DNA of 51,778 nt from Blastochloris sp. (lineage in GTDB: Bacteria; Verrucomicrobiota; Verrucomicrobiia; Methylacidiphilales; JAAUTS01): contig JAAUTS010000002.1 in the NCBI GenBank assembly GCA_012031345.1, positions 1 through 51,778 on the forward strand. Direction: 5' to 3'. Position numbers and translations under genes: made by a program. How positions within the stretch are numbered: the stretch's first letter is position 1; each line of letters opens with the position of its first letter. The notes below the pieces were generated by a model. That model was not told the DNA's origin. It made no database searches and worked only from the letters and a program-made list of their open reading frames with translations. Shown here one piece after another: positions 1,763 to 50,998 of the stretch.

Positions 1763-3859
1763 ATGTCTAAAGACTCCAAAGCACCCAAGGTGCCCAAGTT
1801 ACCCAAAGCCCCTCAACGCAACCCGACGCCCGGCTCCAGCGATGGTCAACCTTCCGGCAACTGGAAAGGCTTGACCCTGTTTTTGATTGCCTCCTCCATC
1901 CTCTTGTTGGCCTTCATGGCCCATCGGATGCAAACCACGGGTTCGGTCAAGGAACTGACTTTCAAAGAGTTCCAGACCCAACTGGAGGAGGGGCAAGTCA
2001 AGTCCGTGCTTCTCTTTGCCGAACCTTCCACGGGAATGGTGCATCTCGAGGGTGAGCTGAAGCCGCTGGGTGCAGTTGATGGAGCGGAGCCGGTTTTGGT
2101 CAATGGGGAACCGCAGGGGCAGAAGTTTAAAACTTTTGTGGTGCTCAGTTTCCAGAAAAATCTGGATGAAATCCTGGCCAAGCACGGCTTCAGCAGCATC
2201 CCGCAAGCTTACAACAACAATCCGACCTGGCAGATCTTGAACTTTCTGCTGCCTTTTCTGCTTTTTATTTTGTTGATGTATTTCTTCTTCCGCCAACAAA
2301 TCAAAATGGCAGGCAAGTCCGCCTTCAACTTCGGCAAGAGTAAGGCCAAGATGATGAACAAGGACAAAAATAAGATCACCTTCAAGGATGTGGCCGGGGT
2401 GGATGAGGCGAAGGAAGAGGTCAGCGAAATTGTAGAGTTCTTGAAAGATCCCAAAAAATTCCAGCGTCTCGGTGGTCGTATTCCCAAGGGTATTCTGATG
2501 GTGGGTTCCCCCGGCACAGGCAAAACGCTGTTGGCTAAAGCTATCGCGGGTGAGGCGGATGTTCCTTTCTACGGCATCAGTGGTTCGGACTTTGTGGAGA
2601 TGTTTGTCGGCGTGGGAGCCTCCCGGGTTCGTGACATGTTTGAACAGGGACGCAAATCAGCCCCTTGCCTGATCTTCATTGACGAAATCGATGCGGTGGG
2701 TCGCAGTCGTGGCCATGGCCTGGGCGGCGGACATGATGAACGTGAGCAGACCTTGAACGCCATGTTGGTTGAAATGGACGGGATCGACACCCAGGAGGGG
2801 GTCATCATCATCGCCGCCACCAACCGCAAGGACGTGCTCGACCCGGCTTTGTTGCGTCCCGGACGCTTTGATCGTGAAGTCATCATCAGCCTGCCGGATG
2901 TCAAAGGTCGCGAGCAGATTCTTCGGGTTCATGCCAAGAAGGTGAAGCATGCCGAGAACGTGGATTGGGCGGTGATTGGGCGAGGCACACCGGGCTTTTC
3001 CGGGGCGGAACTGGCCAACCTGATCAATGAAGCGGCTCTGCTGGCGGCGCGGCGCGGGGCGGAAGCGATTGAGATGTCTGATCTGGAGGAGGCCCGCGAC
3101 AAGGTTCGTTGGGGTCGCGAACGTCGCAGCATGGCCATGACGGAGGAGGAAAAGAAAAACACCGCCTACCATGAAGCGGGACACGCCATTCTGAGTGTGT
3201 TGTTGGAAAACACCGATCCGCTGCACAAGGTGACCATCATTCCCCGCGGCCCATCCCTGGGCGTGACCATGTCGCTCCCGGAAAAGGATGCGGTGAGTTA
3301 TTATCGCAAGAAGATGTTAGATATGATGTGCATGATCATGGGCGGACGCGTGGCGGAAGAAGTCTTCCTGGGAGATGTCTGCAGCGGTGCCTCCATGGAC
3401 ATCCGCCAGGCCACCATGATCGCCCGGAAGATGGTTTGTGAGTGGGGCATGAGCGAGAAGCTGGGCATGGTGAACTACGGGGAGAACGACGACTACGTTT
3501 TCCTTGGACGCGAAATTTCCAAGTCCCGCAGCTACAGCGAAGCGACAGCCCAGGAAATTGACAGTGAAGTGAGAGGATTGGTTAGCGAAGCCCATGAAAA
3601 GGCCCGCAGCCTGATCTCTGAACACCGGGACAAGGTGCAGGCTATCGCCTTGGCCTTGATGGAATACGAAACTCTCGATGGCAAACAGGTCGAGGACATC
3701 GTGCGCACGGGTCGGATGAGCAATCCTCCGCCGAAAAACGTGAGTCCGCCCGCCACACCATTGCCGGATGAAACTTTGGATGCCGCGCCCAAACCGGAGA
3801 AGAAGAAGGATGACGACGGCCTTTTACCCGGATTGCAGGGTGCTCCCGCCGGAGCCTGA
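1763..3859 (+). CDS. ftsH: ATP-dependent zinc metalloprotease FtsH
   Basis: Two TM helices, Walker A GSPGTGKT, Walker [24 protein letters not shown] zinc motif; alternative start at 1736. Confidence 0.97.
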
Positions 3860-38101: not shown

Positions 38102-39598
38102 ATGTTCTCCGCTTTCATCAACTGTTTCAAAATTCCCGAGCTACGCTCCCGTATCCTCTTTACGCTGGCTCTGCTGGTGATCGTGCGTTTGGGCGCGGCC
38201 ATTCCTGTGCCTGGGATCAACCCTGAAGTTTTGGGTGAATATTTCCGCTCGGTGGTCGAGCAACAGTCGGGTGGATCGGTTCTGGGCATGTTCAACCTGT
38301 TCAGCGGTGGTGCTTTGCGGAATTGCGCCATCTTTTCACTGACCATCATGCCTTACATCAGTGCCAGCATCATCATGCAGTTGGCCACGGGGGTCATCCC
38401 GTCCTTGGGCAAGTTGGCCCGGGAGGAGGGGGGACGTCAAAAGATCACCCAATACACCCGCTTCGGCACGCTGATCCTGTGTTTGGTGCAGGGATATTTC
38501 CTGGCATCGGCCTTTCAAAATCCCGAACAAATTTTGCCGGGAATCACGGCGATCGCGAATACGATGGGATCGCCCTTGGTGGCGGTGACGGGTTGGTTTT
38601 TCATTCTGACCACGGTCATCACGCTGACGGCGGGAACCATGTTATTGATGTGGTTGGGAGAACAGATCACGGACAAGGGAATTGGGAACGGGATTTCCCT
38701 CATCATTTCCGTAGGGATTGTTTCCGAGCTGCCTTCCGCGTTGGTGGCGGGTTGGGATGTGTTTAATCCTCCGGCGGAAAGTGGTAAGGATGGTCTGAGT
38801 CCTCTGATTTTGGTGGTGATGTTGGCCTTTCTGCTGCTGGTGGTGGCGGCCACGGTGATGATCACCCAAGCCATGCGCAAGGTGAGTGTGCAATACGCCC
38901 GTCAGGTGCGTGGCAACAAAGTGTATGGGGGACAGAGTTCCTTCCTGCCGCTCAAAGTGAACTACTCCGGGGTGATGCCGATCATTTTTGCCAGTGCGAT
39001 TCTGCTTTTCCCGGCGGCCTTCATCAAGATGCTGGCTCCAGGTTGGCAGCAGGGTGCCAAGATTGCGGACATGTTAAGCGGCGGTTGGCTGCACTGGACG
39101 CTGTATGCGGTCATGATTTTCTTTTTCTCCTATTTCTGGGTCGCCATGGTGTTCAACCCGACGCAGATCGCGGACGACATGAAAAAGAACGGTGGGTTCA
39201 TTCCCGGAGTGCGTCCCGGTGCGCCCACGGCGACGTTTTTGGATTATTCCATGTCCCGCCTGACTTTTGCCGGAGCCATCTTTTTGACCGTGCTGGCCAT
39301 CCTGCCCATGATTATCAGTGAGGGCTTGAAAGTGCCCTTCATCACCGCCTCTTTTTTTGGCGGCACCAGTTTGTTGATTATCGTCGGGGTTATGTTGGAC
39401 ACCATGCGTCAGACAGAAACGCATTTGTTGCAACGTCACTACGACGGCTTTTTGAAAAAAGGCAAGGTGCGGGGACGCAACAATTTCAACACCAGCTCCG
39501 GTGGAGCACCCGTCTCGGAAGACAAGCTATTCTGGCTGCTTCTTTTGGTCGGGGTCATCCTATTGGGCGGCATTGTGGTCAGCCTGATCAAGCAGTGA
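38102..39598 (+). CDS. secY: Preprotein translocase subunit SecY
   Basis: IMPYISASII, GIGNGISLII, GVMPIIFA, FIPGVRPG, GGTSLLIIVGV. Confidence 0.98.
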   Translation: MFSAFINCFKIPELRSRILFTLALLVIVRLGAAIPVPGINPEVLGEYFRSVVEQQSGGSVLGMFNLFSGGALRNCAIFSLTIMPYISASIIMQLATGVIPSLGKLAREEGGRQKITQYTRFGTLILCLVQGYFLASAFQNPEQILPGITAIANTMGSPLVAVTGWFFILTTVITLTAGTMLLMWLGEQITDKGIGNGISLIISVGIVSELPSALVAGWDVFNPPAESGKDGLSPLILVVMLAFLLLVVAATVMITQAMRKVSVQYARQVRGNKVYGGQSSFLPLKVNYSGVMPIIFASAILLFPAAFIKMLAPGWQQGAKIADMLSGGWLHWTLYAVMIFFFSYFWVAMVFNPTQIADDMKKNGGFIPGVRPGAPTATFLDYSMSRLTFAGAIFLTVLAILPMIISEGLKVPFITASFFGGTSLLIIVGVMLDTMRQTETHLLQRHYDGFLKKGKVRGRNNFNTSSGGAPVSEDKLFWLLLLVGVILLGGIVVSLIKQ

Positions 39599-39605
39599 TC
39601 CGGCC

Positions 39606-40370
39606 ATGATTCCGATTAAAAAAGGGGTTGAGATTGAGGGGATGAGAAAAAGCTGCCGGGCGGTCAGCGAAATCCTGGATCATTTGATTTCAATGGTGGA
39701 GCCCGGAGTGACCACGGGAGATCTTGATCGAGAGGCGGCGCGCTTGATGAAAGAGCGCGGGGGCAAGAGTGCTTTTTTGGGGTATCGCGGTTTTCCCGGC
39801 CACATCTGCGCTTCGGTCAATGAAGAGGTGGTTCATGGGATTGGCGGTGCCCGCAAACTTTCCTACGGGGACATCATCAAATTGGACGTGGGGATTATTT
39901 TGGAAGGTTGGGTGGGGGACACGGCCACGACGGTGACGGTGGGAGCGGTTTCCCAGGAGACGAGTCAGCTTTTACAATGCACGGAAGCGGCACTTTACCT
40001 GGGTATTGAAAAGGTGCGTTCCGGTGCCCGCTTGGGGGATGTTTGTTCCGCGATTGAAAAACACGTGCACAAGGCGGGTTACTCGGTGGTGCGTGAGTTT
40101 GTGGGGCATGGGGTGGGCCGCAGTCTGCATGAAGAGCCGCAGATTCCGAATTTTGGCAAGGCGGGCACGGGTCCGATTTTGAAGCCTGGGATGACGCTAG
40201 CCATTGAACCGATGGTGAATATGGGCGGTTGTGATGTGAAGATTTTGAAGGATGGATGGACGGTGGTGACCCGGGATGGGCAGCCTTCCGCCCATTTCGA
40301 ACACACCGTATTGGTGACACAAGGAGAACCGGAAATACTGACATGCAGGAAAGCAGCCGTCTGCAAGTAA
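39606..40370 (+). CDS. map: Methionine aminopeptidase type I
   Basis: SVNEEVVHGI, GHGVG..LHEEP, AIEPMV, SAHFEHT. Confidence 0.97.
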   Translation: MIPIKKGVEIEGMRKSCRAVSEILDHLISMVEPGVTTGDLDREAARLMKERGGKSAFLGYRGFPGHICASVNEEVVHGIGGARKLSYGDIIKLDVGIILEGWVGDTATTVTVGAVSQETSQLLQCTEAALYLGIEKVRSGARLGDVCSAIEKHVHKAGYSVVREFVGHGVGRSLHEEPQIPNFGKAGTGPILKPGMTLAIEPMVNMGGCDVKILKDGWTVVTRDGQPSAHFEHTVLVTQGEPEILTCRKAAVCK

Positions 40371-40573
40371 AGGCCACGGTCATCGCTGCCATCTCGACCA
40401 CGCGTTATCGGGTGGAATTGGAGGATGGAAAACAGATGATTGTGACTTTGGCAGGAAAATTGCGGATGGACTTCATTAGACTCTTGCCAGCAACAAAAGT
40501 TTTAGTAGAATTCTCGCCCTATGACTTGTCCTCTGGCAGGATCATTGAGCACGAAAGCAACAAAAAAATATGA
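40343..40573 (+). CDS. infA: Translation initiation factor IF-1, divergent
   Basis: [31 protein letters not shown]; canonical map-infA-rpmJ position. Confidence 0.82.
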
Positions 40574-40686
40574 AAGTCAAAGCATCGGTCAAGAGGAGAA
40601 CATCAGACTGCCAAGTGGTTCGCCGCAAGGGCAAGGTTTATATCATCAACAAAAAAAACCCGCGTTTGAAGCAACGTCAGGGTTGA
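40570..40686 (+). CDS. rpmJ: 50S ribosomal protein L36, zinc-free type (not in the ORF track)
   Basis: Manual translation [38 protein letters not shown]. Confidence 0.96.
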
Positions 40687-40708
40687 TCGCAGTACAAAGA
40701 GAACGCAT

Positions 40709-41103
40709 ATGCACGAGTTTTAGGAGTAGATATCCCCGGAGAGAAGCGCATCGAAGCTTCGCTGCAATACATTTACGGAATCGGGTTGACCCGGGCCAAA
40801 CTGGTTTTGGACGAGGCTGAAGTGGACCCGAACACGCGGGCCAAGGAGTTGAGCGGCCAGCAGATCAACCGTCTCATCCAGGTCATTCAGGCTCATGGCT
40901 TCATGATTGAAGGGGATTTGCGCCGGGAACTGCAGCAGAATCTCAAACGTCTTCAGGGGATCAATTCCTATCGCGGCATCCGCCATAAAAAAGGTCTCCC
41001 CGTGCGTGGCCAACGCACCTCCACCAACGCCCGCACCCGCAAGGGTCCGCGCAAGACGGTCGGTGTGCAGCGCAACAAGGACGCCAAGGCCGGCAAAGTA
41101 TAA
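40709..41103 (+). CDS. rpsM: 30S ribosomal protein S13 (indel right after the start codon)
   Basis: (M)[39 protein letters not shown]. Confidence 0.97.
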
Positions 41104-41135
41104 TCAGCTAATCATTCAGATCAGGACCTATCATT

Positions 41136-41657
41136 ATGGCAGACGACACCAAGAAAAAATCCACCAAAGCCGCAGGCAAATCCGGCGGTGGATCGAAATC
41201 AGCCGCCAAGGAAGCGGCACCCGCCGCAGTTCCCGTGGAGAACCTCAGCCTCAGCCTGGATCCTGCCATGGATCCCAAGCCCAAGATTGTCAAGGCCAAG
41301 GGCAGCAAAAACATCAGCCAAGGCATCGCCCACATTCTCGCCTCCTTCAACAACACCATAGTTTCCATCACCGACAGCAACGGCAACCTCTTGGGTTGGT
41401 CCAGTGCGGGCAAATGCGGGTTCCGTGGTTCGAAAAAATCCACCGCCTATGTCGCCCAGGTCATCACCCAGGACGCTTGCCGTCAAGCCATGTCCCATGG
41501 TTTGAAGGAAGTGGAAGTCCGCGTCAAAGGTCCCGGCATGGGTCGTGAATCCGCCGTGCGTGCCCTCCAGGCCATGGGCTTGGAAATTAGCACCATCCGG
41601 GATGTCACCCCCATCCCTCACAACGGTTGCCGCCTCCGCAAGGCGCGCCGCGTTTGA
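41136..41657 (+). CDS. rpsK: 30S ribosomal protein S11 with N-terminal extension
   Basis: [33 protein letters not shown]. Confidence 0.98.
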
Positions 41658-41690
41658 TCGATTGACAGTTATTTATCAGGAATATTATTT

Positions 41691-42296
41691 ATGGCACGTT
41701 ATACAGGTCCCCGCAGCAAAATCAGCCGTCGTTTCGGCATGGACATTTTTGGTGGCTCCAAAGCTCTGGAGCGCCGCAACTATCCCCCCGGAGTTCACGG
41801 ACAGAAGCGCCGCAAAACTTCCGAATATGGCGTGGCCATGGCTGAGAAGCAAAAGCTCAAGCTGACCTATGGTGTGCTGGAAGCGCAGTTCCGTCGTTAC
41901 TTCGAGATGGCCGCTCAGAAACGTGGTGTGACGGGTGACATCCTGCTCCAGCTTTTGGAAACCCGTTTGGACAACGTGATCTACCGTCTCGGTTTTGCCA
42001 AAACCCGCCGTCTGGCCCGTCAGTTCGTCACCCACGGCCATGCCCGGGTCAACGGAGTCAAGGCCGCCATCCCCAGCTTCATCTGCAAGCCCGGTGATGT
42101 CATTGAAATCCGTAACAACCCCAAATCCAAACAGATCGTCACGGCCAGCATCGAGGCCTCCCAGCTCCGCACCGTGCCGGATTGGATGACGGTGGATAAG
42201 GACAACATGAAGGGCAGCATCGTCCGCGAGCCCACCCGTGAGGAAATCGGCGTCAACATCAACGAACGTTTGGTGGTCGAACTTTACTCGCGTTAA
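41691..42296 (+). CDS. rpsD: 30S ribosomal protein S4
   Basis: MARYTGP, EKQKL, LETRLDN, ARQFVTHGH, VVELYSR. Confidence 0.98.
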   Translation: MARYTGPRSKISRRFGMDIFGGSKALERRNYPPGVHGQKRRKTSEYGVAMAEKQKLKLTYGVLEAQFRRYFEMAAQKRGVTGDILLQLLETRLDNVIYRLGFAKTRRLARQFVTHGHARVNGVKAAIPSFICKPGDVIEIRNNPKSKQIVTASIEASQLRTVPDWMTVDKDNMKGSIVREPTREEIGVNINERLVVELYSR

Positions 42297-42400
42297 GCTG
42301 GTCTTGGTCCGATAAATATTTTAACGAACAAAACACTCCGTTGGTCCTGGCTCGCCTGCTGCGGGCTCAGGGTAACCCGGAATAAGGAAAAACACACACC

Positions 42401-43416
42401 ATGGCCCTCAAATTAGCACGGTTCGAATTGCCGAACCGCCTCGTGAAGGACGAAGACTCCGCCACACCCACCTACGCCAAGTTCATTGCCGAACCTTTTG
42501 AACAGGGTTATGGACACACACTCGGCAACTCCCTGCGCCGCGTGTTGCTCAGCTCTCTGGAAGGAGCGGCCATCACCTCGGTCAAAATCGAGGGAGCCTT
42601 GCATGAATTCGCCACGCTTCCCGGCGTGGTTCAGGACGTGACCGACATCGTTTTGAATCTCAAGAAGATCAAATTCAAAATGGCCAATCGCGATCCCCGC
42701 ATCCTGTTCCTGAACGTGAACAAGGAAGGCGACGTCACGGCGGGCGACATCACCCTGGAAACGGGAGTGGAAGTGGTCAACCCCGAGCAGATCATTTGCA
42801 CCCTCGACAAAAAAATGAAGTTCGAGGCGGAATTGGAAATCAAAGTCGGACGTGGTTACACCAGTGCCGATGAAAACAAGCCCGAGGCCCAGACCATCGG
42901 TGTGATCCCGATTGATTCCCTGTTTTCCCCGGTGAAAAGGTGAAATACAACGTGGAAGCCACCCGTGTGGGTCAGCGCACGGATTACGACAAGCTGGTTT
43001 TGGAAGTGTGGACGGATGGCCGTCTGAACCCTGACGAATCCTTGCTGCAGGCTTCGGCCATCTTGCGCCATCACCTCGATATCTTTGTCAACTTTGACAA
43101 GGAACCGATTGAGTTTGAAGAGCCCAAGCAGGCCACGGGCACCCAGGACAGTGCCCTCAAGAAACTGCTTAACATGAGCGTCAACGAGATCGAGTTGTCG
43201 GTTCGCGCCGCCAACTGTCTGAACAACGCCAACATCACCACGGTGGGTCAACTGGCCCTCAAGTCCGAGGCGGAAATGCTCAAGTATCGGAACTTCGGCA
43301 AAAAGTCCCTGAACGAAATCAAGGACAAGCTGACCCAGCTTGGTCTTTCCCTGGGAATGCATTTCGAACCCGGCCTGGTCGAGATCCCGGTCGATGTCAA
43401 TGCGGAGAACAAATAA
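42401..43416 (+). CDS. rpoA: RNA polymerase alpha subunit (indel near 42938)
   Basis: EPFEQGYGHTLGNSLRRVLLSS, HEF, TRVGQRTDYDKL, ELSVRAANCL, NFGKKSLNEI. Confidence 0.98.
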
Positions 43417-43890
43417 ATGAGACACCGTACGAAAACCGTCAAACTTGGCCGCAAGTCGCAGCATCGCGACGCCATGCTGGCCAACATGGCAGGAAGTTTG
43501 ATCCTGCATAACCGCATCAAAACCACCCTGCCCAAAGCCAAGGCGCTGCGCCCGATTGTGGAGAAGCTGGTGACTCTGGGTAAGAAGGGTGGCCTGCATC
43601 AGCGTCGCCTGGCCCTGGCCCGTCTCCTGGGTAACGAGGATGTGGTCAAAAAGTTGTTCGGTGAAATTGCCCCCCGCTTTAAAGAGCGTGCGGGCGGATA
43701 CACCCGTATTCTCAAGACCGGACCCCGCCGTGGGGATGCCGCCAGTATGGCTTTGATCGAGTGGGTGGATTTCCTCTCCTCGACCACGGACAGTGCTGCT
43801 CCCGAGGCACCAGCCGCGGAAGCTGCGGCCAAGCCCAAAAAAGCCAAGGCCGCCAAGTCCGAGAAAAAGACGGAAGAAGCCTCAGCCTGA
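43417..43890 (+). CDS. rplQ: 50S ribosomal protein L17
   Basis: [27 protein letters not shown]. Confidence 0.98.
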
Positions 43891-43922
43891 TCTGAATCCC
43901 GGATCCGAGCCCCAGGCTAAGC

Positions 43923-43960
43923 AAAGGCAGCGACCCCACAAAGGTCGCTGCCTTTTTGTT
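43923..43960 (+). terminator. Rho-independent terminator ending the ribosomal superoperon
   Basis: Perfect 13-bp stem AAAGGCAGCGACC/GGTCGCTGCCTTT followed by TTGTT. Confidence 0.92.
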
Positions 43961-44040
43961 GGGCAAGAGGTTTGGACAGGAAGGACAAGATGTAGACTGG
44001 GGAAGAAGGTGCTGATTTTGGGTGGGAAGTGTGCGTTTCT

Positions 44041-44556
44041 TTATGGGCGATAGCCACGACCCTTTTGCCATGTTTTGATCCGATCCGAACACAGCACTTT
44101 TGGCAGATAGCGGTCTTGAGCGAGGAGGGACTCGAGTTTTTCCGCAGCGTCTTTGGGTTTGAGTAAACCTTTTTCGATCAGACGATCGAAGATCCAGAGT
44201 GTGCCGTGCACTTCTACGCACCGGGCTTCGGCCAACAGGCGCAGTTCCTTGTCCCCGGTCAGTAGCAAGGCCCTAAGTGCCACCGCCAGCAGGTACGCCC
44301 CGGCATCCTCTATTTCCAAATCAGGATGGTCGAACAGGCATTGCGCCGACTCCGCCAGAATTTGTGGCGTGGTCTCATGGATGAACAGTCGTCTGGAAGC
44401 GGCGAAGGCCAGCACCCCCGAATGCCCTCCTTTCTGAATCTGGGCGAGGATCAAGTCGGTGGTGTGGGTCTCGATTCCCAGATCAAACCAGATGCCCAAA
44501 GTCCCGGAAAGTTCCAGGTCAATGAGGATGTTGGCGTCCTGAACGGCGATCTTCAT
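44041..44556 (-). CDS. PIN-domain protein (DUF3368/VapC-like putative RNase toxin)
   Basis: VQDANILIDL, EIED, LLTGDKELR, VHGTLW; ATGA overlap with the upstream gene. Confidence 0.85.
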   Translation of the reverse strand: MKIAVQDANILIDLELSGTLGIWFDLGIETHTTDLILAQIQKGGHSGVLAFAASRRLFIHETTPQILAESAQCLFDHPDLEIEDAGAYLLAVALRALLLTGDKELRLLAEARCVEVHGTLWIFDRLIEKGLLKPKDAAEKLESLLAQDRYLPKVLCSDRIKTWQKGRGYRP

Positions 44557-45632
44557 GAGAGCAGATCGTCGCCTTTCCGGATTTCAACCAGCGTCACGTT
44601 GAGGAGTGAGGCGGCCTTGGAACGGGTGACCTGCTGTTCCGCCACCGCCCGGAAGACTAGTTGGCGGAAGCGTTGGGAGCGTTCGCAGCCTCGGTAGTCG
44701 TCATCGCCCGGCTCCTTGGCCTTCCAGTTCTCCGCCTTGTAACGGTCCCAGAAGCGTCGGGAAAGCGCGGGGGTGATCAACTCCTGTTGTTTGGCTCGCA
44801 TCATGAGGGAGCCCAGGGAAATGCCCCAGGTGACTTTGATGCTGATCAGTTCTTTCAAGGAAAGGGTTTCCCGGAACCCGCCGAAAGCCTGCCGACAGGA
44901 CTCCGCAGGCAGGATGAAGGACCCGGCGAAGCGGGCGACGATCTTTTCCTCGTCCAGACCGGGAGCAAGGCGGTCCTTGAGCAGGACATGGCCAAGCTCG
45001 TGGATTGTGGTGTGGCGCTTGCGGGTCAGGCATTGGTCGTTGAGGTGTTTGCCGATGACCACGATGGGGGTCGAGCCGATCCAGCCGGAAAATCCGTCGA
45101 ACTCCGGTGGCGCGTCCACCTCACAAACTTTGATGCCGTTCAGTTCCAGCATTTCCATCAGGTTGCCGATGGGTTGGCGTCCCAGGTTCCAGGCATCACG
45201 CAGCTTTTCTGCGGCGGTCTCCGCGTCTTGAGGCGACTCGATTCGCAGCTTACCAAGCGGGTTGTGGAAGGGGTGCTTGAGGCCAAGGATCGATTCGATG
45301 GAGAGATAGCGCTCGAAGTAATCCTGAGCCTTGATTTCAAGGGTCTGGAACTGTTTGACGCCTAATGTGTCGTGTTTGGCGCGGTATTTCACACCCTGGA
45401 TGGCTGGCTCTGTCGGCCGGAAGAAGAAACCTGGAGGTTGGTTCAGGGCTTCCGAGAGGGCGATGAGGAGGGTGCCGTCGGGCATCATCTCGCCGCGTTC
45501 GTATTTGGCCAAGGCGTTGTGGGAGACGGCACCACCGATGCGGTCGGAGAGTTCGCGCAGGGAAAACCCCGCCATCTGCCGCGCCTGCCGCAGCCGTGTT
45601 CCGAAAAGTGAGGTATATTTGGTTTCGGTCAT
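44553..45632 (-). CDS. XRE-family HTH fused to ImmA/IrrE (DUF955) zinc metallopeptidase
   Basis: RLRQARQMAGFSLRELS..LAKYERG HTH; FDGFS; TIHELGH (HExxH); E..ARFAGSFILP. Confidence 0.92.
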   Translation of the reverse strand: MTETKYTSLFGTRLRQARQMAGFSLRELSDRIGGAVSHNALAKYERGEMMPDGTLLIALSEALNQPPGFFFRPTEPAIQGVKYRAKHDTLGVKQFQTLEIKAQDYFERYLSIESILGLKHPFHNPLGKLRIESPQDAETAAEKLRDAWNLGRQPIGNLMEMLELNGIKVCEVDAPPEFDGFSGWIGSTPIVVIGKHLNDQCLTRKRHTTIHELGHVLLKDRLAPGLDEEKIVARFAGSFILPAESCRQAFGGFRETLSLKELISIKVTWGISLGSLMMRAKQQELITPALSRRFWDRYKAENWKAKEPGDDDYRGCERSQRFRQLVFRAVAEQQVTRSKAASLLNVTLVEIRKGDDLLS

Positions 45633-45674
45633 GTTTACAAAATAGTTGACAAATTAAATATTGTAAACCATTAT
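45630..45674. promoter_or_regulatory. Overlapping divergent promoters with three GTT(T/G)ACAA boxes
   Basis: + strand TTGACA(45646-45651)-17-CATTAT(45669-45674); - strand TTTACA-17-TATTTT-6 nt-ATG; boxes at 45633-45640, 45645-45652 and inverted at 45661-45668. Confidence 0.72.
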
Positions 45675-45793
45675 GTGCTTATGAAACGAGGTTGCTAATT
45701 TACTGAAGGGGTGGCCCAGCGTGCTGTTATGGGCGACGGTAATGACCAAGCAACTTCGCTACACGGAACGGAACGCATAGAACAAATATCATC

Positions 45794-46754
45794 ATGAAGC
45801 TTACTGATACTCAGCTAAACGTTTTCATATCTAAGGTTCTTCATCTTGGGAAAGGAAAACGGAAGGAATTCCTTACTCAAGTAGATTTCCTTATTCAAAG
45901 TCTGGATAAGAAAATCAAGGAAGACGCATCCTTCAAGGTAAAGGGCTTCAAAAAAACCGGCTCAATCATGAAAGGCACGGTTCTCAAGCCCAGTGGTGAC
46001 TTTGGAGTTGATGCGGATATTGCGGTTTTCTTAGATGTTTCAGAATCTGAAAAAAATGACATCGAAAATCTCCACCAAATCATTCGCAATCTTCTTGTGG
46101 CAGTTTATCCAACTAAGAAGCCACAGGATTTCCGGGTTCAACCTAGGACGCTAGGCATTCACTTTCACACGTCGGGCCTAGATGTTGATCTTGTCCCAGT
46201 AATTCCAATCCCCAAGCAAGAGGGTTACGGATGGCAGCCATCGTCTCAGCGTGGACAGCCCGTTAAAACCTCAATCCAAGGCCAATTGGATTTCATTAAA
46301 AACCGGAGAGATGCGGACCCGAGATTTAAATCCATCGTGCGATTGTTGAAAAAATGGCGGAATGAGAATGAACTCGAGCGTTTCCGCTCTTTCACCATTG
46401 AACTGCTTGTCGCACACCTTTACGACCAAAACGGTGCAGCAACTTCCCTCGAAGACGGGCTCCAGCGGTTCTTCCTTTTTCGTTGCTCAAACTGGCCTTA
46501 CCAAGCCCATCACTTTTCCTGAGCTTGGCAAAGGAGTGAGCTTTCCGAGTGACCCAGTTGTGATTCTCGACCCCGTAAACAAGGACAACAATGTCGCGTC
46601 CCGTCTGACTGATGATGAAAGAAAAGAAATCGTGGGAGGTGCAGAAATGGCATGGTCCACGATAGAGGCAGCGAGCTGGAAGGGTGGGAAAGGCGACACA
46701 TTAGATCTTTGGAAGAAAGTCATGGGACGTTCCTTCACAATCGACCAAGAATAA
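45794..46754 (+). CDS. cdnC: CBASS CD-NTase, CdnC-like (+1 indel near 46478)
   Basis: TGS..KGT.L, DADIAVF, GLDVDLVP, SIVRLLKKW, RSFTIEL, ILDPVN.DNNVA, W.KVMGRSF; about 319 aa after repair; adjacent HORMA and TRIP13. Confidence 0.9.
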
Positions 46755-46756
46755 AT

Positions 46757-47272
46757 ATGAGTTCAACAGGCACACGCACCACCACCTACACAGTCGCTGA
46801 CATCCGCAAAGTCGTCGAAAACTTTGCCGCCGATTTCTCCATGATGGCACAAGCCACGGGATTGCGCACACGTGAAAGCGTCGCATCCGTGGTTTCCGAC
46901 CTGAACATTTTCGCAGAATATGGTTACCTAGTTTCGGTGACGCTGTTCTTGCTCGACAAGGACGGCAACAAACTTCGTGTCGCCTACTACAAGGTCGCGG
47001 ATTCCGCAGCGGGCTGGCAATCGGATGCGCCCGGCAACAACCTCTGGCCCAGAACCGAAGGAGGCTCTTTGTGGGTGCTCGGGACATTGACGGACGCGTG
47101 GTGGAACAAAACAGGTGCCGAAAAGGAAGCATTTATTAAAGCGAGGGGGTTGAATTTCCCATGGTCCAAAACTGATAAGGACACATCGCTCAGTGGGTTG
47201 ACTTCAAGTGCTGGCCAAAAATACGCCAGCAATGGATATGGTTGGGAGCGGACTAATTACAGTCGATTATAA
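46757..47272 (+). CDS. cap7: Bacterial HORMA-domain protein (Cap7-like)
   Basis: Thr-rich N-terminus TGTRTTTYTVADIRKV, YGYL..V.L.L, C-terminal YASNGYGWERTNY; lies between cyclase and AAA+ ATPase. Confidence 0.87.
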   Translation: MSSTGTRTTTYTVADIRKVVENFAADFSMMAQATGLRTRESVASVVSDLNIFAEYGYLVSVTLFLLDKDGNKLRVAYYKVADSAAGWQSDAPGNNLWPRTEGGSLWVLGTLTDAWWNKTGAEKEAFIKARGLNFPWSKTDKDTSLSGLTSSAGQKYASNGYGWERTNYSRL

Positions 47273-47274
47273 TT

Positions 47275-48189
47275 ATGAAAGAAGGAACCGCCGCGTTGTT
47301 TGAACTGGAAACCTCCCTGCCCGATGCCAGGCTTAAGACCCAAGCGGAAAGGCTGGTTGGATTCAAGGCCCGATACGACCGCATTCACCAGGACTTGCGC
47401 CTCCTAATCGACAAGGAAGGTTTGGAAAATTGGAGCAAGAAGCATTACCACAACCGCCTTCCATTGCTGGATTCGTTGTTCGACCGATACCCACTCGTTG
47501 TATTTCACGGAGATGTTGGAACGGGTAAAACAGCAACCGCTGAGGCAGTAACAAACGCACTCGCCGGGGAGCTTGGCAAGGGAGCGCTGCTCTTCAAACT
47601 GAGCACGCGTGTGCGAGGAAGCGGCAACGTCGGAGAAATGAGTTCCCTCATCAACCAAGCCTTCGATATTGTTGGCGAGGAAGCTGGGAAAGCAAAACTG
47701 TCCTTTCTTATCATTGATGAGGCTGACTCACTCGCAGCCAACCGCTCCGGTAGCCAAAGCCATCATGAGGATAAGGTTGCTGTGAACACGCTTATTCAAA
47801 AGATTGATGACGTTAGGAGATTCAACGGCCGTGTGCTGGTCATTCTTTGTACGAACCGATACGAGGCGCTCGATCCAGCAATTCTCCGACGTGCTGCATA
47901 CGTCGAAGAATTTCGACGACCTGATGACGGTGAACGGCGCGAGATTCTGAATCTGGATTGTGAAGGGCTGGGACTGACAGCATCCGCCATTGAAGAATTG
48001 GTACAGCTCACGGGAACGCACGGTCCCCACAAGCTTGGCTACACGTTTTCTGATATTCGCACGAGGCTACTTCCAGAGGCACTGGTACACGCTTACCCGA
48101 CGCGCAAAATTAACCATACTGATTTGATCGACGCAATTTCACGAGTTGCGCCATCACCGACAATCTTTACGACGGAAGATCGCGTATGA
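47275..48189 (+). CDS. cap6: TRIP13/Pch2-like AAA+ ATPase (Cap6-like)
   Basis: GDVGTGKT, RVRGSG.VGEMS, IIDEADSLA, HHEDKVAVNTLIQKID, LDPAILRRA. Confidence 0.92.
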   Translation: MKEGTAALFELETSLPDARLKTQAERLVGFKARYDRIHQDLRLLIDKEGLENWSKKHYHNRLPLLDSLFDRYPLVVFHGDVGTGKTATAEAVTNALAGELGKGALLFKLSTRVRGSGNVGEMSSLINQAFDIVGEEAGKAKLSFLIIDEADSLAANRSGSQSHHEDKVAVNTLIQKIDDVRRFNGRVLVILCTNRYEALDPAILRRAAYVEEFRRPDDGERREILNLDCEGLGLTASAIEELVQLTGTHGPHKLGYTFSDIRTRLLPEALVHAYPTRKINHTDLIDAISRVAPSPTIFTTEDRV

Positions 48190-49350
48190 ATCTTCGTGGT
48201 CGCCGAATTCACATCGTTGGGAGTGCTGATCCCACGGCTGATGAAGAGAAACTGGGATATGTCCATTCGCTTGTATCTGAACTGACAAACGCACTTGTGG
48301 CGGAGGGTGCTAATTTCGTTATACCGTTTGGTAAGGAGCCGTTTCTTACAGAACGGGAAGATGGGCTCTCTATCATCTTTGATTGGACCGTAGCTGAAGC
48401 GGTATCCAAAGCCCAAATCAAAGGAATTGCTAAGCCTTCTGGCCCCAATGGTTACCTGATTGCAACCTTGGCAACAAGTAAGACAGATTTCCAAATTCCA
48501 GCAGTTCGTCGCGTTATTTATGAACAACTTAGGGACACTAATTCCATCGGCATCGAATTCCTTGAACCTGGCTGGAGCGCGGGCGCCATTAGCCGTTCAC
48601 GGCTTGCCCAGCTCGGGGACATTCTGATTGCGATTAGTGGGGTCAAGGGGTTGAGCAACTTGCAATCGAATATTCCTCAAGGGTAAGCCGGTCATTCCGC
48701 TCGATATTAACGTGGGTTCTTCTTCGCGCGATGGATCTGGAGGGGCACCAAGACTCTTTGATCGAGCTCGCGCCAAGCCTGGAGACTTCTTTTCAGTAGC
48801 AGCGTCTGCATCCGCAGCTGATTTACTAGACCGAACCCAAACTCGAAATGGAGAAGTCAATGTCATGGTAGTCGTGGCTGCCATCCTTAACCTGATCCAT
48901 GCCCTCGTTCCCCCACGAGTTTTCTACGTCAGACTCCTGAATGACACGCTTCCCGAATATACATCTGTAGAGGAGTTTTTTAGAAAAACCGCCGACCCGC
49001 TTGTTCGAGAATTGGGCTATGAGCCGCTCCAAATGGGGCTTGGAAAGAACGAGTTTGTCTGGATGAATCAAGCCATTTTCGACTCCATGCACCACAGTAG
49101 TGTAGCACTTGTAGATCTGACAGGACTGAGGCCCAATTGCTTTATGGAACTGGGATATTCGCTCGGCAACAAGCAGCGAGTGATTGTATGTGCTCGTGAC
49201 GACACGCGAATTCCATTTGATGCGTTTGCGCTGGAGGCTTTTCAGTGGAAAGAATCTGAAGACCTAGGTAAGAGATTGGACAAGTTCCGCACACATTGGG
49301 AAAGAAATATCAACATGCCAACGCTTGTTCGACCAAAGGAGGCGAAGTGA
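48186..49350 (+). CDS. CBASS effector: Cap17-like (SLOG-like) N-terminal domain plus nucleoside 2-deoxyribosyltransferase-like C-terminal domain (two -1 indels near 48640 and 48681)
   Basis: IHIVGS, EP..IIFDWT, repaired IAISGGQGVE..GKPVIPLD..VG..DG.G; C-terminal VDLTGLRPNCFMELGYSLG..VIVCAR...IPFD; frame arithmetic fits one ~388-aa ORF. Confidence 0.75.
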
Positions 49351-49893
49351 AAGCTGAGTGCTATTTTTTCAGTAGATATTGAATCCGCAGGTCCGATACC
49401 CCGGCAAAATACAGCATGCTTTTCTCTAGGCGCGTGTGTGGTGGGTGATCCTACGGTATCGTTTTACGCCGAACTGAAACCCATCACTAAAGAGTTCGTG
49501 GCAGAAGCTCTTAAGATATCTGGGTTTAACCTTGAACGTCTTGAGCGCGAGGGTCAGGCGCCTGAAAATGTAATGAAGGACTTCCGCCGATGGGTTGAAA
49601 CAGTCACCGAGGAGTGCAAACCAGTCTTTGTCGGTTTCAATGGCTGCTTTGACTGGCAGTTTGTGAACTGGTACTGTGAATCGTTTGCCGGGGGCAATCC
49701 ATTTGGGTTTGGTGGAATAGACATCAAGTCGTATTTTATGGGCTTTAGTGGTGAGACGTGGGCGAGATCGACATCAAGCCAACTACCAGAGGAATTTAAG
49801 CCTGACATTCCACAAACCCACAATGCGCTTGATGACGCACGTGCCCAAGCATCGATCTTTCATAAATTATTTACTAAGCGGCGTTCAAGATAG
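49347..49893 (+). CDS. cap18: DEDDh 3'-5' exonuclease, Cap18-like (several +1 indels near the 5' end)
   Basis: Repaired start [52 protein letters not shown]; GTGA overlap with the effector stop. Confidence 0.82.
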
Positions 49894-50133
49894 ATAGCCG
49901 TAAATGTCAATTCGTTGTGTTGCGCGATCCAAGAACGGCGCCCAGCGGGTCGGTCCTCGAATTTAAGGGTCTAACGGCGTTATTGCCTGAGCAAGAGGTA
50001 ACACCCTTTCTGAGTGTGGGTCTCTTTCAACTGGCTTGGCCTGAGGTGACGGGGAGGTTTAGGAGTGAGGGATCATGGGCCATCAGCCTTTTACGTATCA
50101 ATCTTGCCCTCTTCCGTAATTTCCTGCTACTTT

Positions 50134-50322
50134 ATGAATATGACAACCGGGTATTCCAATTACACCAGAGCCGATGCACGCAAAGAAATTGGAGAAATGC
50201 GCAAATTTACCCAAGAGCTGGTGAAATCACCCGGCAAAGCGCAAAAGCTTTTGATCGAGGCGGGTATTCTTCGCAAATCGGGCAGGGGTTTGGCCAAAAA
50301 ATATCAATCGGCCAGCACTTGA
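50134..50322 (+). CDS. Small basic protein, putative antitoxin/partner of the downstream gene
   Basis: About 60 aa with A.KLLIEAGIL..SG..LAKKY; stop is 4 nt before the next ATG; alternative start 50140. Confidence 0.55.
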   Translation: MNMTTGYSNYTRADARKEIGEMRKFTQELVKSPGKAQKLLIEAGILRKSGRGLAKKYQSAST

Positions 50323-50326
50323 GCCT

Positions 50327-50959
50327 ATGCGTCACTCGGCTTGGATATTGGCATACCATGGATGTGATCGGTCTATAGGTGATCAAATCCTCCGTGGTGA
50401 CTCTGAAGTCAAGCCGAGCAACAACGAGTATGACTGGCTTGGGAAAGGTTCTTATTTTTGGGAAAACTCCTACAGCCGCGCCCTCAAGTGGGCTCAATTT
50501 CTAAAAGAGCACCCTTCCTACACTCATAAAGCGATCAAAGATCCGTTTGTGGTGGGCGCCATCATTGATCCCGGAAATTGCCTCGATCTGACAGAAGCCG
50601 AATGTCTCGATATCCTGAAGGAAGCTTACGCGCAATATGTTGATGTGATGCGTTTGGTGGCCAAATACTCGGGTGAGCCGACGGTCCTTCCGAAAAATGA
50701 GCCTGGTTTCAAAGGGGACGAGGATCTAGTCAAACGCAAGTTGGATTGCGCTGTCATCAACTGGCTTCATAAAACGAGAGAAGACCGGAAGCTCAAAAGC
50801 AAGGGACTACAACCCTTTGATACCGTGCGTGGCGCCTTTTCAGAAGGTGATTCGCTTTTTGAGAATTCGAAAATTGAATCCAGAACCCATATTCAATGGT
50901 CGGTGTTGGACCCTGCACGAAGTGTGGTGGCTTATTTCAGACCTCGAATCAGAAATTGA
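50327..50959 (+). CDS. ADP-ribosyltransferase-fold-like protein (putative toxin)
   Basis: AYHGC, KPS.N.YDWLG.G.YFWE, RALKWA, CLDLT, THIQ: H-Y-Q arrangement resembling H-Y-x ARTs. Confidence 0.6.
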   Translation: MRHSAWILAYHGCDRSIGDQILRGDSEVKPSNNEYDWLGKGSYFWENSYSRALKWAQFLKEHPSYTHKAIKDPFVVGAIIDPGNCLDLTEAECLDILKEAYAQYVDVMRLVAKYSGEPTVLPKNEPGFKGDEDLVKRKLDCAVINWLHKTREDRKLKSKGLQPFDTVRGAFSEGDSLFENSKIESRTHIQWSVLDPARSVVAYFRPRIRN

Positions 50960-50998
50960 TCTTTTACGGACATATGATCTTCGAGATGGGAACGCGTG

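Follow-up and report, generated by a model that had tools for sequence, protein, structure and literature searches.

On a 51,778-nt stretch of contig JAAUTS010000002.1 from Blastochloris sp. (assembly GCA_012031345.1, positions 1 to 51,778; the whole stretch is hereafter called the window), a gene for a fused transcriptional regulator and the PIN-domain gene that follows it form a self-regulated XRE-M78 + PIN module of a known kind, which settles beside many defence operons and here stands back to back with an antiphage system that signals by cyclic oligonucleotides (CBASS). Judged by its sequence, the 359-aa regulator is a member of a widespread family of single-chain proteins that join an XRE-type helix-turn-helix (HTH) domain to an M78 peptidase. 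From an operator conserved across this family, the bound regulator would, on balance, also co-repress and later co-induce CBASS. How an abortive-infection system such as CBASS is controlled at the level of transcription sets the timing of cell suicide and, to our knowledge, few types of CBASS regulator are understood, that is, CapH/CapP, CapW, and CapK/CapS. The kind of regulator described here is already known, so the locus stands as a new, well-documented case and establishes no new principle; what it adds is the operator consensus, a leaderless clade, a near-constant PIN partner with a modelled interface, and evidence for a repeated independent pairing with CBASS.

The elements of the cassette and of its operator are the following.

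44041..44556, minus strand: PIN-domain (VapC-like) nuclease, 171 aa, presumed toxin; its start overlaps the regulator stop by 4 bp
44553..45632, minus strand: XRE-HTH + M78 (ImmA/IrrE-type) zinc peptidase in a single chain, 359 aa, presumed repressor and antitoxin
45633..45640: box 1, proximal operator arm, GTTTACAA on the plus strand and TTGTAAAC on the regulator strand; abuts the start codon and is conserved in the family
45645..45652: box 2, middle half-site, GTTGACAA on the plus strand and GTCAAC on the regulator strand; contains the plus-strand -35 TTGACA
45661..45668: box 3, distal operator arm, GTTTACAA on the minus (regulator) strand; contains the regulator's own -35
45639..45667, minus strand: promoter-like site of the regulator-PIN operon, TTTACA-17-TATTTT, 9/12 consensus matches
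45646..45674, plus strand: promoter-like site toward CBASS, TTGACA-17-CATTAT, 10/12 consensus matches, inside the operator

An operator at the regulator start

A divergent intergenic region of 161 bp (45633-45793) separates the regulator from the first CBASS gene, which encodes a cGAS/DncV-like nucleotidyltransferase (CD-NTase). An earlier reading made from the letters of the window (the sequence-only reading) had placed in this region two opposed promoters and three GTT(T/G)ACAA boxes next to the regulator open reading frame (ORF), and all of them were found where it had put them. On the minus strand, the -35 TTTACA (45667-45662) and the -10 TATTTT (45644-45639) are followed by gtaaac and then by the ATG at 45632-45630, while the -35 (45646-45651) and -10 (45669-45674) of the CBASS-facing site imply a leader of ~110 nt up to the ATG at 45794. 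Taken alone, the box pattern has six matches in the 51.8-kb window, as compared with 2.6 expected, and 6 of 100 shuffles reach six; three of these six matches fall within 36 bp, and no further box with up to one mismatch occurs between 45560 and 45830. Promoter-like sites also crowd at this place, with five in 43500-46500 against 1.4 +/- 1.4 in shuffles, four of them within 45634-45698.

To see how far this arrangement is shared, we drew on two samples of relatives (loci numbered L001 onward), namely the 80 closest of 138 confirmed genomic loci, with 39-63% identity to the window regulator, and 18 plasmid homologues with 31-37% identity. The upstream 130 nt of the window regulator and of those at 78 loci were aligned, and an exact GTTKACA-N21-23-TGTMAAC inverted repeat was present in 61 of these 79, whereas only 1 of 3869 random windows from the same loci contains it. 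The spacer between arms is 22 nt in 30 loci, 23 nt in 29 and 21 nt in two, and boxes 1 and 3 of the window, with 22 nt between their 7-nt cores, fall within this range. Most of the 18 misses retain one exact arm, and most of the plasmid homologues visibly share the motif. The resulting consensus, gGTTKACAAA ... tttTGTMAAC, spans the regulator's own -35 to +1 across the family, so autoregulation is well supported and the self-repression proposed by the sequence-only reading gains strong backing. Between the arms, 17 of the 61 loci have a middle half-site, TCAA, at a distance of 11-16 nt ahead of the proximal arm, where shuffled spacers give 2.4; L001, the closest relative, has this element in exact form, and the upstream similarity that the window shares with L001 is confined to the ~42-nt operator core.

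The position of the operator also bears on how translation starts. In 33 of the 61 loci the proximal arm ends 0-2 nt ahead of the start codon, which lends good support to a leaderless regulator start, as had been suspected for the window. The family appears to switch between leadered and leaderless layouts, leadered relatives being Nitrospirota, Thermodesulfobacteriota and alphaproteobacterial, and leaderless ones making up a Verrucomicrobiota-rich clade. At L004, L005, L007, L010, L017, L025, L027, L029, L037, L079 and the plasmid loci L083-L095, the palindrome is accompanied by a 20-60-nt leader with GGAGG. The Mesorhizobium loti plasmid locus L094 carries, besides, an extra GGTTTACAAAA box (2889-2899) ~75 nt upstream of its main operator, on the CBASS side.

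The fused regulator and its PIN partner

The regulator harbors an HTH_3 domain at residues 14-69 and a Peptidase_M78 domain at residues 166-280 (Pfam), with the HELGH signature at 211-215, and its AlphaFold model (predicted local distance difference test, pLDDT, 93.3) starts with the HTH, passes through a long linker helix into the peptidase and ends in a helical C-terminus. In a PADLOC scan 14 RmrA models matched, the best at 5e-44 over the full length (residues 10-345), whereas capP matched at 5.7e-7 over residues 136-280 only and capH at 2.7e-3, both weak scores; a CapP chain of the PDB hit the regulator-family profile at 1.3e-3. The NCBIfam model of the spr1629 repressor/antitoxin matched at 3e-31, under its family cutoff (108.8 vs 335 bits). 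Foldseek returned CapP (7t5t) as the top structural match (8.8e-4, TMq 0.30, 178 aligned columns) and also IrrE (3dte), the likeness to both being confined to the peptidase part, and ImmR and IrrE chains were recovered by sequence or fold search.

Searching 5.8 billion proteins yielded 671 matches to the family, and the 120 members listed are all of ~340-440 aa and nearly all carry both domains; fusion is thus the normal state of a large family, which bears out the proposal that HTH and peptidase form one polypeptide. The same regulator family figures as RmrA, the RosmerTA antitoxin, in the toxin-antitoxin literature and presumably as a CapH-CapP fusion in the CBASS literature. Two other arrangements were considered and ruled out in the window: a classic two-protein CapH + CapP pair, as the protein is a single chain with no small HTH gene standing apart from it, and a CapW (WYL) regulator, as no WYL domain occurs in the ORFs scanned (42401-50959).

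The sequence-only reading gave no role to the PIN gene, and here it has to be amended, as the unit, with its conserved PIN partner, is not only a regulator but also a module that resembles toxin-antitoxin systems. The 171-aa protein matches Pfam DUF3368 weakly, a search with its family profile retrieved PIN chains, VapC6 (2lcq, 3.2e-7) among them, and its AlphaFold model (pLDDT 95.8) retrieves VapC4 (5h4g) and 1y82 in Foldseek (TM ~0.6, probability 1.00). Over 53 sequences, D7 and D13 are invariant and D84, D102 and D124 near-invariant. By its modelled fold and conserved acidic site the protein is therefore classed as a PIN nuclease, its activity being predicted. A PIN homologue directly follows the regulator in 70 of the 80 genomic and 16 of the 18 plasmid loci, and the 4-bp overlap between both genes recurs in 35 of 71 pairs.

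Co-modelling of both proteins gave an ipSAE of 0.87 in three runs, the best of three controls scoring 0.00. In calibration, 58 of 80 solved complexes attained the mark used for this score, as did 2 of 110 mismatched pairs; these figures are only roughly valid here because own alignments were used. The partners keep pLDDT values of at least 89, with at least 95% contact agreement between runs. In the modelled interface, regulator residues 2-9, 49-73 and 330-354 face PIN residues 7-12, 61-84 and 102-105, so that the HTH flank and the C-terminal helices of the regulator cover the PIN acidic site, and the peptidase centre stays outside. The model thereby supports binding of the regulator to the PIN protein over its active site. 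As this predicted contact uses the HTH flank, the toxin could also act as a co-repressor.

The CBASS operon and its pairing with the cassette

By its gene matches, the operon facing the regulator is a type III CBASS with cyclase, HORMA, TRIP13, effector and exonuclease genes.

45794..46754, plus strand: CD-NTase, in two frames (45794-46522 and 46362-46754); NCBIfam CBASS_cyclase_a, PADLOC PDLC00808
46652..47272, plus strand: bacterial HORMA protein; Pfam bacHORMA_1 2.7e-33, PADLOC PDLC00886
47275..48189, plus strand: TRIP13-like AAA+ ATPase; PADLOC TRIP13 PDLC00914 4e-116, Pfam AAA
48186..49350, plus strand: CBASS effector, in two frames (48186-48686 and 48712-49350); Pfam Cap17-like_N 1.5e-26, PADLOC PDLC00733
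49438..49893, plus strand: DEDDh 3'-5' exonuclease of the CBASS-effector type; PADLOC PDLC00753 4.1e-53, Pfam RNase_T

The true start of the HORMA gene is probably the ATG at 46757, since the Pfam match begins at residue 36. Ahead of the CD-NTase ATG at 45794, the site listed above and a second one overlapping it (45634-45662) are the only plus-strand promoter-like sites, and an Rfam scan of 43800-46000 at E up to 1 gave two sub-threshold chance matches and no known RNA element in the CBASS leader. Among the plasmid homologues, 9 of the 18 face CBASS divergently, as confirmed by PADLOC.

L081: phospholipase + cyclase + E2
L083 and L098: phospholipase + cyclase
L084: TRIP13 + two HORMA + cyclase
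L090 and L091: cyclase + 2TM effector
L092, L094 and L095: cyclase PDLC00808 + HORMA PDLC00886 + TRIP13 PDLC00914

A sigma-70 consensus scan between the regulator and CBASS told little for the two loci to which it was applied, with one site in L094 and none in L084. L092, L094 and L095 share the CBASS models and the gene order of the window, and a tenth plasmid locus, L093, retains a CBASS trace in the form of a CD-NTase remnant. On a tree of 98 regulators (all loci except L035, whose regulator ORF runs off the contig), the CBASS label needs at least four changes, against a mean of 8.3 when labels are shuffled, with none of 500 shuffles reaching so low a number. In this tree, L001 and L002 are the neighbours of the window (support 98), which lies far from an alphaproteobacterial clade in which 7 of 8 members face CBASS of three different architectures. 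The tree thus suggests that the pairing in the window is an independent instance of an association that arose at least four times. Since the operator encloses the sole CBASS-facing promoter-like sites and the pairing recurs in relatives, control of CBASS by the regulator, exerted together with that of its own operon, is the most likely reading, and one we hold to be moderately probable.

Several observations nevertheless weigh against this co-control. CBASS is absent from all 80 closest genomic loci: phmmer and tblastn searches of these loci with the eight CBASS ORFs of the window returned nothing except an AAA match in L077, and Pfam found no SMODS or HORMA domain in 299 + 36 neighbour ORFs. 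The nearest upstream ORF is co-directional with the regulator in 39 of 67 cases and divergent in 28, so the cassette is not consistently placed as a divergent regulator, and several genomic loci have housekeeping neighbours only. The plasmid sample was hand-picked, comprising 18 of 75 records, one per genus or plasmid group, from 60 listed. The CBASS-facing promoter of the window is a predicted one, recognized by consensus match only. The G+C content at third codon positions (GC3) is host-like in the regulator (0.75) and the PIN gene (0.65) and lower, 0.44-0.58, in the CBASS genes and the next ORF. As to the proteins, Pfam detects no GAF domain in the regulator, whose residues 300-359 are modelled as helices only, and an alignment of 35 family members shows no invariant or near-invariant cysteine of the switch type, which means that the cue for activation may be another than that of CapP; no PADLOC RmrT model matches the PIN protein, the sole match being PDC-S70 at 1.1e-3.

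Much of this would be expected if the module were a free-standing, RosmerTA-like toxin-antitoxin or abortive-infection unit that regulates only itself, its adjacency to CBASS reflecting the crowding of defence islands and CBASS being transcribed independently. The absence of CBASS from the closest loci, the mixed neighbourhood, the lack of an orientation preference and the GC3 difference all fit this explanation, as do the far better match to RmrA than to capP and the complex model, which favors antitoxin-toxin binding. It accounts poorly, however, for the 9 plasmid homologues that face CBASS, among them three architectures within one tight regulator clade, for the at least four recurrences of the pairing on the tree, for the want of any promoter-like CBASS site outside the operator in the window and for the extra operator box on the CBASS side in L094. 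It also sits badly with Lau et al. 2022 (preprint, 10.1101/2022.04.27.489752), where such fusions are listed as CBASS regulators, with 15 CBASS systems carrying an apparent capH-capP fusion. We therefore regard exclusive self-regulation as possible but rather doubtful. The proposal of the sequence-only reading, a regulator that could repress itself and CBASS together, is partly supported: the operator geometry of the window and half of the plasmid loci speak for it, whereas the closest 80 loci lack CBASS and a fixed divergent placement is not seen.

Around the genomic loci, 21-22 of the 67 nearest upstream ORFs match a PADLOC model at E <=1e-12, with no cyclase among them. Type I restriction-modification is the neighbour at 13 loci, prokaryotic Argonaute (pAgo) at four, and BREX parts, Wadjet, AbiE and HipA are also found, together with SNF2/DrmD-like and DrmMI-like proteins, a KAP/PifA NTPase, 6a and 6e ubiquitin-like operons, CRISPR I-U and transposases. 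The regulator-PIN pair lies inside or beside type I restriction-modification operons at L010, L027, L032, L045, L048, L053, L055, L061, L067, L074 and L076; on plasmids, it is inserted between hsdS and hsdR in L086 and precedes hsdM-hsdS in L082 and L089. In four Bacteroidota loci, a gene for a Piwi protein of ~690 aa, a prokaryotic Argonaute, follows the PIN gene on the same strand after 9-38 nt, in the place where a third member of the cassette operon would stand.

L050:3398-5461: Piwi protein
L055:5883-8003: Piwi protein
L058:8288-10354: Piwi protein
L074:9553-11613: Piwi protein

A second, paralogous M78 cassette lies a few kb away at L012 (4148-5940, minus strand) and L017 (4127-5736, plus strand), partnered with a PADLOC RmrT toxin (1.2e-40) at one of these loci and with a DUF4411 protein at the other. 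Two neighbour assignments were discarded. L004 had been a candidate type II CBASS (E2-E1-JAB + patatin); its first gene is not a cyclase and gives weak LmuA/MBL matches only, and the operon fits the 6a kind. A 57-aa gene fragment upstream of L001, reminiscent of Cas3, has no Pfam or PADLOC match.

The condition of the CBASS genes in the window raises a further explanation, namely that they are a decaying pseudogene cluster with frameshifted CD-NTase and effector, so that regulation by the neighbour would be a functionless relic. Both genes do run in two frames. The CD-NTase breaks near a TTTTT run at ~46475, its first frame matching CBASS_cyclase_a over positions 2-230 and its second over 230-317, and the effector matches PDLC00733 at positions 5-159 and 181-382 of 388 in separate frames, near G runs at ~48640-48652. 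That CBASS genes can decay beside this cassette is exemplified by two alphaproteobacterial plasmids with an intact cassette: in L092 the CD-NTase is in two pieces (1867-2926, minus strand), and in L093 an N-terminal remnant (2505-2936, minus strand) lies beside an IS3 transposase. In the window, however, the essential rpoA (42401-43416) is split in the same manner, with model positions 6-181 and 183-320 in two frames and the break at ~42940, where a short G run adjoins an A run. With three homopolymer breaks in 7 kb, and an essential gene among those hit, indel errors of assembly are indicated instead of CBASS decay, and both halves of each broken CBASS gene still match their models end to end. 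The frameshifts are thus probably assembly errors, and we deem a relic very improbable.

By its SecY protein, the host falls among uncultured Verrucomicrobiota, with 74% identity to the best named match. The GC3 profile is of interest beyond the point made above. It stays at 0.62-0.75 over 38102-45632, which comprises ribosomal-operon genes, the PIN gene and the regulator, drops to 0.44-0.58 over 45794-50959 and returns to 0.74 at 50996. This low-GC3 block of ~5.3 kb beside the cassette, directly downstream of rplQ, suggests that CBASS was acquired separately from the cassette and more recently. At its end, a 210-aa ORF (50327-50959, plus strand) has no Pfam or NCBIfam match and a weak PADLOC match to PD-T4-9_A (7.3e-5); it may be a further defence gene. 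On the other side of the cassette, ribosomal protein L17 (43417-43890, plus strand) matches the NCBIfam "sunset domain variant" exception model under its cutoff (152.5 vs 280 bits).

A working model and its place among known systems

Together, these data are compatible with the following sequence of events. The regulator and the VapC-like PIN nuclease would be made from a leaderless bicistronic mRNA. The HTH is predicted to bind the family-specific inverted repeat GGTTKACAAA-N16-TTTGTMAAC, with a third half-site between the arms, and this binding would shut off the regulator's own operon. At the same time, the regulator would hold the PIN nuclease inactive by laying its HTH flank and C-terminal helices over the acidic site, as modelled. 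Given the geometry of the region and the recurrent synteny in relatives, the bound repressor would also keep CBASS low. By analogy with CapP/CapH, IrrE/DdrO and ImmA/ImmR, a phage or DNA-damage cue may then activate the M78 domain, the repressor being cut in cis or in trans, which would switch on both CBASS and the cassette and free the PIN nuclease. The cassette itself is portable and docks beside many defence operons.

In ImmR/ImmA of ICEBs1 and DdrO/IrrE of Deinococcus, an XRE repressor is inactivated by an M78 peptidase after DNA damage. Unlike the fusion of the window, these are pairs of separate proteins, IrrE has a GAF domain, and what they control is neither a toxin nor a defence operon but genes of mobile elements or of repair.

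The closest functional parallel is CapH + CapP, which likewise combines an HTH repressor function with an IrrE-like M78 peptidase, upstream of and opposite to a CBASS operon. In Lau et al. 2022, the Thauera CapP is described as a peptidase with an internal HTH and a C-terminal GAF domain, and a cysteine-switch loop is present in 33% of CapPs and not strictly defining; according to Calloji et al. 2026, single-stranded DNA activates CapP through this loop. The regulator of the window differs in that its HTH is N-terminal in one chain and that both the GAF domain and the conserved switch residue are missing. Lau et al. also report CapH/CapP-like regulators beside DUF2188, 6a and 6e operons and a DISARM with a vapC-like gene and a fusion. 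The spread of partner operons (DISARM-like, DUF2188, 6a, 6e) is thus the same for the loci studied here, down to the vapC-like gene beside one DISARM fusion, and neighbours of these kinds were found at L004, L039, L076, L088, L097 and L098. Unlike CapH/CapP, however, the family of the window has the PIN gene as an almost constant third part.

Exactly the same gene pair, a fused Xre-COG2856 gene followed by a PIN gene, was recognized by Makarova, Wolf and Koonin 2009 (PMC2701414), who, in the sections considered here, describe Xre-COG2856 fusions in operons with PIN or RelE, on mobile elements, as a predicted stress-response toxin-antitoxin-like system with LexA-like logic. In contrast to the present analysis, those sections offer comparative-genomic prediction only, with no operator, leaderless start or CBASS link. 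RosmerTA was named by Millman et al. 2022 (preprint), its antitoxins having an HTH and an ImmA domain, and for the ImmA antitoxin node Ernits et al. 2023 (PMC10440598) note the HTH as well as PIN-like partners; pneumococcal spr1629/spr1630 (RipAB) is assigned to the Rosmer family in a further preprint (10.1101/2025.09.02.673660). The window module resembles RosmerTA in its antitoxin with N-terminal HTH and ImmA-type zinc peptidase, in its two-gene operon and in the PIN-like partners reported for the node. It differs in a PIN protein that matches no RmrT model and belongs to a branch known here from sequence and model alone, and the passages cited above on RosmerTA mention no control over an adjacent operon.

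These findings have several implications. The fused form of the regulator has so far been mentioned only in passing, and the locus and its ~100 relatives now provide a precise operator consensus that is open to direct test, along with a predicted regulator-toxin interface. We further propose, as a tentative idea that we would not yet bet on, that XRE-M78 + PIN is a portable sensor-repressor-toxin cartridge that attaches itself at the 5' end of defence operons of many unrelated kinds; its targets may include CBASS types I, II and III, 6a/6e ubiquitin-like and DISARM-like operons, type I restriction-modification, pAgo and CRISPR I-U. Should the toxin also serve as co-repressor, the neighbour would be expressed in dependence on the toxin:antitoxin ratio. 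If the cartridge idea is true, a single cleavage would induce the neighbouring system and release the nuclease as a second layer, which would explain the scatter of the regulator-PIN pair through defence islands and would link the biology of toxin-antitoxin pairs with the way in which defence systems next to them are induced.

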